The notes under the pieces are model-generated. The model ran no database searches and had not been told where the DNA came from. It saw only the letters and a list, made by a program, of their open reading frames with translations. The position numbers were made by a program, and so were the translations under genes. Below are positions 2,384-2,808 of a stretch of DNA of 20,834 bases, piece by piece (within the stretch, counting starts at the first letter, position 1; every line of letters starts with the position of its first letter). The stretch comes from a virus (lineage: Duplodnaviria > Heunggongvirae > Uroviricota > Caudoviricetes): the IMG/VR virus record IMGVR_UViG_3300030310_000016; one strand, 5' to 3'.

Positions 2384-2635
2384 GTCAATACAAAGGATGC
2401 TTCGTCTTTATTATAGTAATCTGAGGCGTCGGGTGTCTTGTATCAGACAACATATTGTCCCGCTAAACAGCGAATTACAAACCACCCTGCAATGATCTCT
2501 CATCTCATTTTATATGAGTTGACGACATCAGGATAACGCATCATCAGCCCCTGCCAAGAAATATCAAAACTCCCGCCAGCAATGTGTTATCACAATATTG
2601 TAAAAAAACACAGCACCGAAACTATAACTGGTCTC

Positions 2636-2644
2636 TGTTATAAT
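2636..2644 (+). promoter_or_regulatory. extended -10 element TGtTATAAT flanked by a 9-bp inverted repeat (candidate small-RNA promoter and operator)
   Basis: TGTTATAAT at 2636..2644 lies between inverted repeats AACTGGTCT (2626..2634) and AGACCAGTT (2656..2664); a bidirectional terminator follows about 60 nt downstream. No good -35 was found. Confidence 0.25.
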
Positions 2645-2701
2645 TTGGAGCAGAAAGACCAGTTGCCCAACTAGCAGCATTCTCCCCTGCTTTCCTGACG
2701 T

Positions 2702-2728
2702 AAAAAAACCGCATTAAGCGGTTTTTTT
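2702..2728 (-). terminator. tR'-like bidirectional intrinsic terminator immediately downstream of the Q-like gene
   Basis: AAAAAAACCGC-ATTAA-GCGGTTTTTTT is a perfect hairpin flanked by A7 and T7, so it can terminate on either strand. It lies about 80 nt downstream of the stop of the 180-aa Q-like gene on the minus strand, the position lambdoid phages use for tR'. Confidence 0.5.
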
Positions 2729-2808
2729 ACGATGTCCATGTCTGCAATCCGCCTCGCGATACAGCTTTGCGAAGCATAGCAAAATTGAAGCAGTTTATAC
2801 GTAAGAAA

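Follow-up and report, generated by a model that had tools for sequence, protein, structure and literature searches.

In the textbook Q cassette of lambdoid phages the Q gene is followed by the late promoter pR', a pause element, a terminator and the late genes (Yin et al. 2019, 10.1101/651190). In Salmonella Gifsy-1 a promoter directly downstream of the Q-like gene antQ produces IsrK, an experimentally shown RNA of 77 nt whose Rho-independent terminator is partly read through (PMC4825925). The small RNA (sRNA) StxS of Stx phages comes from the terminated pR' transcript (Sy et al. 2020, PMC7547250), and in prophages of enterohaemorrhagic E. coli (EHEC) convergent anti-sRNA pairs (AgvB, AsxR) occupy the moron site 3' of pR' (Tree et al. 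2014, PMC4104026). Here we describe the corresponding region of a 20,834-nt stretch of caudoviricete DNA, IMG/VR record IMGVR_UViG_3300030310_000016 (hereafter the window), in which an original prediction had placed a bidirectional terminator, a plus-strand sRNA and a possible small toxin behind a Q-like gene. We conclude with good confidence that positions 2812..2702 of the minus strand are the late regulatory cassette of a Rac-like lambdoid prophage and belong to its Q-like gene, which is of the DUF1133 (AntQ) type. The cassette is ordinary in kind, and constitutes a new sequence class of the antQ/IsrK type.

The probable late cassette at the end of the DUF1133 gene

Loci encoding DUF1133 relatives in other genera (27 in all) were fetched and their downstream sequences anchored, and the resulting motif was followed in 21 loci from Enterobacteriaceae. 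Where the Q-like gene ends, or directly behind its stop codon, all 21 carry TTG-N3, 17 further nucleotides, TTNAAT, five nucleotides and TANGCT at fixed spacing, although identity among the Q proteins falls to ~51%. The distance from the stop codon to TANGCT is not fixed, being 7, 23, 28 or 30 nt, and in L015 and the group of loci to which the window belongs the elements fall in non-coding DNA. Since the spacing holds irrespective of where the stop codon lies, in coding and non-coding DNA alike, the motif behaves as a DNA signal and not as a coding constraint.

The window has TTGATT at 2807..2812 (minus strand) in the -35 position, overlapping the TGA stop; its TTG is invariant in the 21 loci, as is its distance from the other two elements, and the hexamer is in register with TTGACT of L004 and L008, two loci of the isrK type. 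A 17-nt spacer separates it from TTCAAT at the -10 position (2784..2789, minus strand), a hexamer that reads TTNAAT in 20 of the 21 loci and CTAAAT in L014. Stretches between the -35 and the -10, such as AACTGC or AAGTGC before TTNAAT, are also conserved. The third element, TATGCT (2773..2778, minus strand), is preceded by TG at 2781-2780, and the T, A, G, C and T of TANGCT are invariant in the 21 loci, always 5 nt after TTNAAT. This arrangement points to a sigma-70 promoter at the very end of the Q-like gene, with a -35 that overlaps the stop codon. Where the original prediction had seen no convincing -35/-10 pair for pR', a candidate can now be located, overlapping the Q-like stop and conserved in the 21 loci.

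The block as a whole is conserved. Among diverged E. coli DUF1133 prophages DNA homology begins at the stop codon and in many genomes breaks off exactly where the U tract of the terminator hairpin ends (2812..2702). Of 5426 complete E. coli genomes, 1848 match a query that contains this block (2330-2830), and O157:H7 prophages are among the matches. The DLP12 region downstream of quuD, compared by reading, has no similarity to the late cassette.

The block closes with a symmetrical intrinsic terminator, A7-CCGC-UUAAU-GCGG-U7, at 2702..2728, which can be read on both strands (on the plus strand A7 at 2702-2708, CCGC, ATTAA, GCGG and T7 at 2722-2728). It folds with -16.6 kcal/mol on the minus strand and -16.0 kcal/mol on the plus strand (z = -6.8 and -6.2, respectively), and none of 200 shuffles did as well. 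The perfect A7-stem-T7 hairpin of the original prediction is thus present, beginning 80 nt beyond 2809, where the stop codon ends, and among all the features listed there it is the only one that exceeds chance. Its interpretation as tR' of a Q-linked late unit, with the lysis genes behind it, is upheld by the comparison: 20 of the 21 loci have a terminator at the same place, a G+C hairpin and U run following the motif, from which RNAs of 58-107 nt are predicted. One compensatory change, C-G to A-U, is found in the terminator of the window.

Promoter and terminator together would produce a short late-leader RNA of ~74-76 nt (2702..2777, minus strand). Two of the loci, L004 (E. coli, 75.6 bits) and L008 (Salmonella, 67.1 bits), score above the threshold of the Rfam family isrK (RF01394) and encode Q proteins 89% and 84% identical to that of the window. 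Their isrK match starts 33 nt after the DUF1133 stop, and at isrK-type loci the beginning of the Rfam model lies 37 nt downstream of the first T in the -35 TTGACT. Transfer of this register to the window, in agreement with promoter geometry, gives 2777-2775 as the most likely start. The predicted leader folds with -24.8 kcal/mol (z = -2.9) into a 5' hairpin, an open A-rich linker and the terminator, and its class I and class II relatives fold alike. In the minimum-free-energy fold the 5'-proximal hairpin (2751..2775, minus strand) consists of GCUUCGC, 11 nt and GCGAGGC. It recurs in eight of eight class II leaders, which are nearly invariant and so offer no readout of covariation in this hairpin; an analogous hairpin starts at +2/+3 in class I leaders and at +1 in IsrK. 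A literature search for DUF1133 and for a 16-mer of the leader gave no result, nor does the leader sequence occur in the supplements of Tree et al. 2014.

The gene to which this cassette belongs (2809..3351, minus strand) encodes a protein of 180 aa that belongs to DUF1133 (PF06576, E 2.5e-107) and matches PHROG 753, 'anti-termination protein Q-like', at 2e-79. It reaches 26.1 bits against PF06530 (Phage_antitermQ), for which the cutoff is 26, and 117 of its 120 listed homologues have a precomputed PF06530 assignment. The homologue is annotated q in the records of phage Rac-SA53 and phage Rac, and the gene has nin-region genes (YbcO, DUF1367) on one side and lysis genes on the other. On the combined evidence of Pfam, PHROG and synteny we assign it as a Q-like antiterminator gene of the type that adjoins IsrK in Salmonella Gifsy-1 (AntQ). 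A separate observation concerns L030 (E. coli B7A), in which a class II leader block follows a gene annotated 'hypothetical protein' (928..1461) and not DUF1133; this gene may be a divergent or mis-annotated Q allele on the same leader.

Assignment of the promoter elements and the proposed late switch

The element TATGCT can be read in either of two ways, as a sigma-dependent pause element straddling the start site or as the true extended -10. On the first reading the window would share with lambda pR' a -10-like hexamer around the start site, and the placement of TATGCT resembles the spacing of the lambda pause element relative to the -10. If TGcTATGCT (2781..2773) were instead the real extended -10, transcription would start near 2766 and yield an RNA of ~65 nt, and TTG-N17-TTNAAT would become a Q binding element or auxiliary site. 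We consider this assignment possible, if doubtful. In all 21 loci TANGCT provides an A at -11 and a T at -7, the two bases on which sigma region 2 depends most, whereas TTNAAT has a T at -11; by reading, 12 of the 21 loci, the window included, have TG at the extended -10 position, and the class II leaders have a second A-N-GCT 10 nt further on (AAAGCT, 2768..2763) that could act as the pause element. The remaining nine loci, however, lack the TG, and the TTG hexamer and TTNAAT stand at the ideal promoter spacing of 17 nt. The isrK-type loci, for which the RNA 5' end is known, share the register of the stop-overlapping -35, and this places the start inside TANGCT. A start at 2766 would also delete the 5' arm of the conserved leader hairpin.

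A further possibility is that the hairpin at 2702..2728 does no more than end the early-right (Q) operon, and that the true late pair lies downstream, with AAGACA-18-TATAAT (2439..2410) as promoter and 2382..2355 as terminator. This promoter agrees with the consensus at 10 of 12 positions, the terminator has an 8-bp stem, and in L035 and L036 the pair differs in the terminator loop alone. It belongs to another module, however, which in other prophages is preceded by a tRNA cluster and lies over 1 kb away from the Q gene, itself of a different family, and in E. coli APEC 102026 it lies a further 560 nt from the DUF1133 gene. The 2812..2702 block, by contrast, accompanies DUF1133 across genera at fixed spacing and corresponds to the mapped isrK promoter, and we hold it very improbable that the downstream pair is the late switch.

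Several observations weigh against the late cassette as we propose it. The hexamer TTCAAT is non-canonical and has a T in place of the critical A at -11, so that its assignment as the -10 is one we infer, and a real -10 at TATGCT, with a start near 2766, would count against the scheme. A Q binding element could not be identified in the promoter region. The kinship of DUF1133 with Q21 is marginal: a search of the PDB with the 180-aa protein gave Q21 as top match, in colinear segments and not significant (E 0.27), and an hhalign profile comparison with QuuD returned E 6.8e-4 but a weak probability of 27%. The AlphaFold2 model of the protein, built with 28 homologues of 75-93% identity, has a pLDDT of 54.8, too poor for fold comparison. 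The leader (2775..2702) scores 21.6 bits against Rfam isrK, where the threshold is 50, and so is not a member of that family; most of this score must come from the terminator, because the plus strand scores 20.7 bits. Finally, the G+C core of the terminator is 4 bp in the window (-5.5 kcal/mol, versus -8.8 in relatives), so termination may be leaky.

In the late switch that we favour, with TTGATT and TTCAAT as the promoter hexamers, transcription in the lysogen would begin at 2777-2775 and end at the hairpin and U7 tract 2728..2702, leaving an RNA of ~75 nt. After induction the Q-like protein would load onto RNA polymerase at the promoter-proximal region, and the Q-loaded polymerase would read past tR' and the two later terminators (2382..2355 and 665..648) into the genes for holin, endolysin and spanin. 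From their position behind three terminators, the lysis genes probably depend on Q.

A deletion junction beneath the plus-strand motif and the 38-aa frame

The region beyond tR' is best understood by comparison with L042, E. coli APEC 102026 (NZ_CP087290.1), in which 2900..2649 of the window is matched at 100% identity and 2648..2300 at 98.6%, with 560 nt between these two segments. The window therefore has a recent deletion junction at 2649|2648 (2648..2649) relative to the APEC 102026 form. The deleted form occurs in 444 of the genomes surveyed, and E. coli E308 (NZ_CP030281.1, ~2525300-2525560) is an example. The missing 560 nt (L042 641..1200) include a decayed phage-type tRNA-Gly (GCGGGTATCGTATAATGGCTATTACCTCAGCCTTCCAGGCTGA...), so what the lineage of the window has lost from between tR' and the module downstream is a tRNA region. 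The stretch beyond the hairpin is a mosaic. The 53 nt that follow tR' (2649..2701, minus strand) travel with the Q module in some DUF1133 prophages (~77% homology to L029-L031), and 2648..2210 is common, at 69-80% identity, to prophages with a different Q family, where it comes after a tRNA cluster. Because homologues of 2648..2210 adjoin TerB genes, the sRNAs PasA and PasC of enteropathogenic E. coli (EPEC) were considered as its relatives; their sequences, taken from E2348/69 via Table S6 of PMC8550237, gave nothing but chance matches of at most 21 nt when compared with the window by blastn, and this candidate was rejected.

The original prediction had proposed that an extended -10 element, TGTTATAAT (2636..2644, plus strand), flanked by a 9-bp inverted repeat, drives a plus-strand sRNA of ~78 nt. 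The element and both repeat arms (AACTGGTCT at 2626-2634 and AGACCAGTT at 2656-2664) are where they were said to be, and as a match to the extended -10 TGTTATAAT is perfect. The motif TGNTATAAT, however, is at chance level, with one occurrence in the window against 0.82 expected and at least one in 55 of 100 shuffles, and the plus-strand TGTTATAAT has no -35. In L035 and L036 its TG is changed to CG, with TATAAT kept, and in L037 the whole element is absent. Both repeat arms, the unit from TGTTATAAT to the hairpin and the 38-aa open reading frame (ORF) discussed below straddle 2649|2648, the arms lying on opposite sides of the junction. We judge TGTTATAAT to be a chance match or at best an opportunistic promoter.

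The RNA proposed would start near 2651 and form a convergent sRNA pair with the late leader. In its favour, the hairpin is on paper as good in the plus direction (-16.0 kcal/mol, U7), the predicted fold is better than that of shuffles (z = -2.8), TATAAT is retained in the two diverged homologues just named, and convergent pairs of short sRNAs 3' of pR' in the moron site are documented in EHEC prophages (PMC4104026). The gap of 58 nt between promoter and terminator, however, exists only through the 560-bp deletion and exceeds 600 nt in APEC 102026. The A7 tract is present in this undeleted form too, so the symmetrical hairpin did not arise together with the plus-strand unit. The Rfam families AgvB and AsxR (RF02702, RF02703) have no match in the window at the gathering threshold, nor in 1700..2900 at E values up to 10, and for OrzO-P, the AgrB family and isrK the scores stay at 20-22 bits and are due entirely to the terminator. 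The sub-threshold Rfam candidates (Thr_leader, AgrB, OrzO-P, STnc50 and others) all fall on the terminator hairpin and were dismissed as not meaningful. The claim that such an RNA is antisense to the 5' end of the late transcript (~2777..2729) also fails on geometry, as 2651..2728 would face the terminator and the next 50 nt. Selection for a plus-strand transcript has left no sign in the comparison, and we consider the proposed RNA unlikely, though an opportunistic transcript is conceivable. Also unlikely is a more far-reaching scheme in which the leader (2777..2702) is not just a by-product but a stable trans-acting sRNA of the StxS/IsrK kind. In the Rac lineage with the deletion its partner at the shared bidirectional terminator could then be an opportunistic plus-strand RNA of ~78 nt, and the 560-bp deletion would have given birth to a new convergent pair.

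On the minus strand, the 38-aa hydrophobic ORF at 2564..2680 was seen as reminiscent of a type I toxin, with the plus-strand RNA masking its translation start. Its coordinates and translation are right, its N-terminal half is hydrophobic, and over 2651..2680 the putative antisense RNA would cover both the Shine-Dalgarno sequence and the start codon. Yet it is one of 84 ORFs of at least 30 aa in the first 7 kb of the window, has no Pfam or PHROG match and matches no toxin family, and its Shine-Dalgarno spacing is as cramped as had been remarked, with GGAG 1 nt before the ATG. The frame spans the deletion junction and in the undeleted form would be 12 aa long (MLLVGQLVFLLA*). In most near-identical genomes the frame also has another C-terminus: the homopolymer at 2603-2609 is T7 in the window and T8 in L001, L002 and 34 of 37 evenly sampled near-identical genomes, and in L001 and L002 T8 leads to a different product of 45 aa. 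Among diverged homologues, the ATG is missing from L029 and L030, in which a 1-nt indel is also present, two nucleotides are deleted in L037, and the codon changes relative to L035, counted by eye, are ~2 synonymous and 8 non-synonymous. Antitoxin RNA families score far below their thresholds (OrzO-P 20.4 bits versus 60, AgrB 21.7 versus 40). With an ORF that is not conserved, a promoter motif at chance level and no antitoxin RNA family, we judge the ORF to be non-coding, an artefact of the junction; the comparison effectively refutes the toxin-antitoxin reading, to which we attach next to no probability. The case illustrates how a deletion junction can by accident yield a convincing-looking layout of ORF and antisense promoter.

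Neighbouring units and comparison with known systems

Judged from its sequence, the window is a Rac-like lambdoid prophage of E. coli. It is marked as such by a match to RalA, the antitoxin RNA of the RalR/RalA system, at 19100..19278 on the minus strand (Rfam RF02694, 225 bits), and complete genomes carry near-identical copies of the prophage beside trkG, with the genes essD-rrrD-rzpD (annotated in L001). Rightward and late transcription run along the minus strand, on which the DUF1367 gene (4237..3638) is followed by the YbcO gene (3638..3348) and the DUF1133 gene. Then come ~1 kb without long ORFs, two lipoprotein genes with TolA C-terminal domains (PF06519; 1765..1337 and 1186..791) and a holin gene of the P21 S type (324..596, minus strand; PF04971 at 4.5e-35), the first lysis gene served by the late transcript. 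The window contains no tRNA genes. Two overlapping ORFs (102 aa and 288 aa; 5727..6898, minus strand) resemble a transposase pair of the IS3 family that has entered the prophage, and an element that looks similar breaks the copies of the DUF1133 gene in L027 and L028 after 38 codons.

Two further late-strand terminators lie between tR' and the lysis genes. That at 2355..2382 (minus strand, -11.8 kcal/mol) is kept in L035 and L036, where the loop alone differs, and is the end of a promoter-plus-terminator unit (2355..2439, minus strand) with AAGACA-18-TATAAT, ~48 nt and the terminator AACCGCC-UGUUU-GGCGGUU. Conserved in these two loci, whose Q belongs to another family, with changes confined to the terminator loop, the unit is a candidate for a very short sRNA; it matches no Rfam family. 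The other terminator (648..665, minus strand, -12.5 kcal/mol) lies between the lipoprotein morons and the holin gene and closes a moron unit (648..1824, minus strand) that consists of a promoter-like TTGAGC-18-TATAAT (1824..1795), the two lipoprotein genes and the terminator itself, and that fills the slot in which Rac-SA53 has pertussis-like toxin genes. The lipoprotein morons had been thought to need Q-dependent read-through; with a promoter-like site and terminator of their own, they need not. Between the non-coding stretch and the first lipoprotein gene Rfam STnc100 matches at 1876..2062 (minus strand, 86.6 bits, threshold 47). The 42-nt core of this match (2043..2002) has counterparts downstream of stx1B in Stx1 phages, and similarity to phage mEp460 covers 2053..1766. 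According to a 2026 preprint, STnc100 is related to the PasD sRNAs.

The cassette described here would place the late-gene switch of Rac-like prophages and of many other enterobacterial prophages with a DUF1133 (AntQ-type) Q. Its signature, TTG-N20-TTNAAT-N5-TANGCT followed by a terminator, is searchable, and could be used for annotating late promoters and short leader RNAs. It also ties IsrK of Gifsy-1, the sole characterised example, to a much larger set of leaders diverse in sequence, a set that would be useful if mined for regulatory sRNAs of the kind proposed for StxS.

Compared with the lambdoid Q cassette, as in lambda with its 6S RNA and in phage 21, the window has the same order of parts and has its lysis genes behind a terminator. 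The window leader is the positional analogue of lambda 6S RNA, both being short and constitutively terminated (in the window by prediction), but it is shorter than the 194-nt lambda leader. The window differs further in that DUF1133 is only marginally similar to Q21/PF06530, in that the promoter is embedded in or abuts the coding end of Q, and in that its Q binding and pause elements are putative. Like StxS, the window leader would be a by-product of a late promoter under antitermination, and its terminator hairpin and U tail are, as in StxS, of a form to which Hfq could bind; StxS, however, is processed by RNase E from a 258-nt transcript, has shown targets in rpoS and stx1B, and shares no sequence similarity with the window leader. 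The AgvB/AsxR pairs have the geometry that had been proposed for the window, with two short RNAs converging between Q and the lysis genes, but they sit after the moron coding sequence and not at tR', and the putative plus-strand partner in the window lacks conservation.

The isrK-type loci offer an observation of their own: the IsrK match is followed by a match to the P1/P7-type C4 antisense RNA in both L004 (3575..3776) and L008 (3588..3768), in L004 also overlapped by a c4-a1b1 match, which points to a C4-type module for antirepressor control in the IsrK-orf45-anrP region. The window has neither the orf45-anrP antirepressor operon nor a C4-type RNA, so the known trans-activation target of IsrK is absent there. 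Its promoter class also differs from the isrK-type promoters, which lack the TANGCT element, and the leader sequences differ. In other respects the antQ-PisrK-IsrK arrangement (Hershko-Shalev et al. 2016, PMC4825925; RF01394) is closely matched: the Q-like gene is of the same family, the -35 lies over the stop codon in the same register, the RNAs are of similar length (77 versus ~75 nt) and both consist of a 5' hairpin, an open linker and a Rho-independent terminator, and at both loci moron genes come next and lysis genes after them. As far as sequence can tell, the window leader is thus a positional and architectural analogue of IsrK, its closest characterised relative, and not a sequence member of the isrK family.

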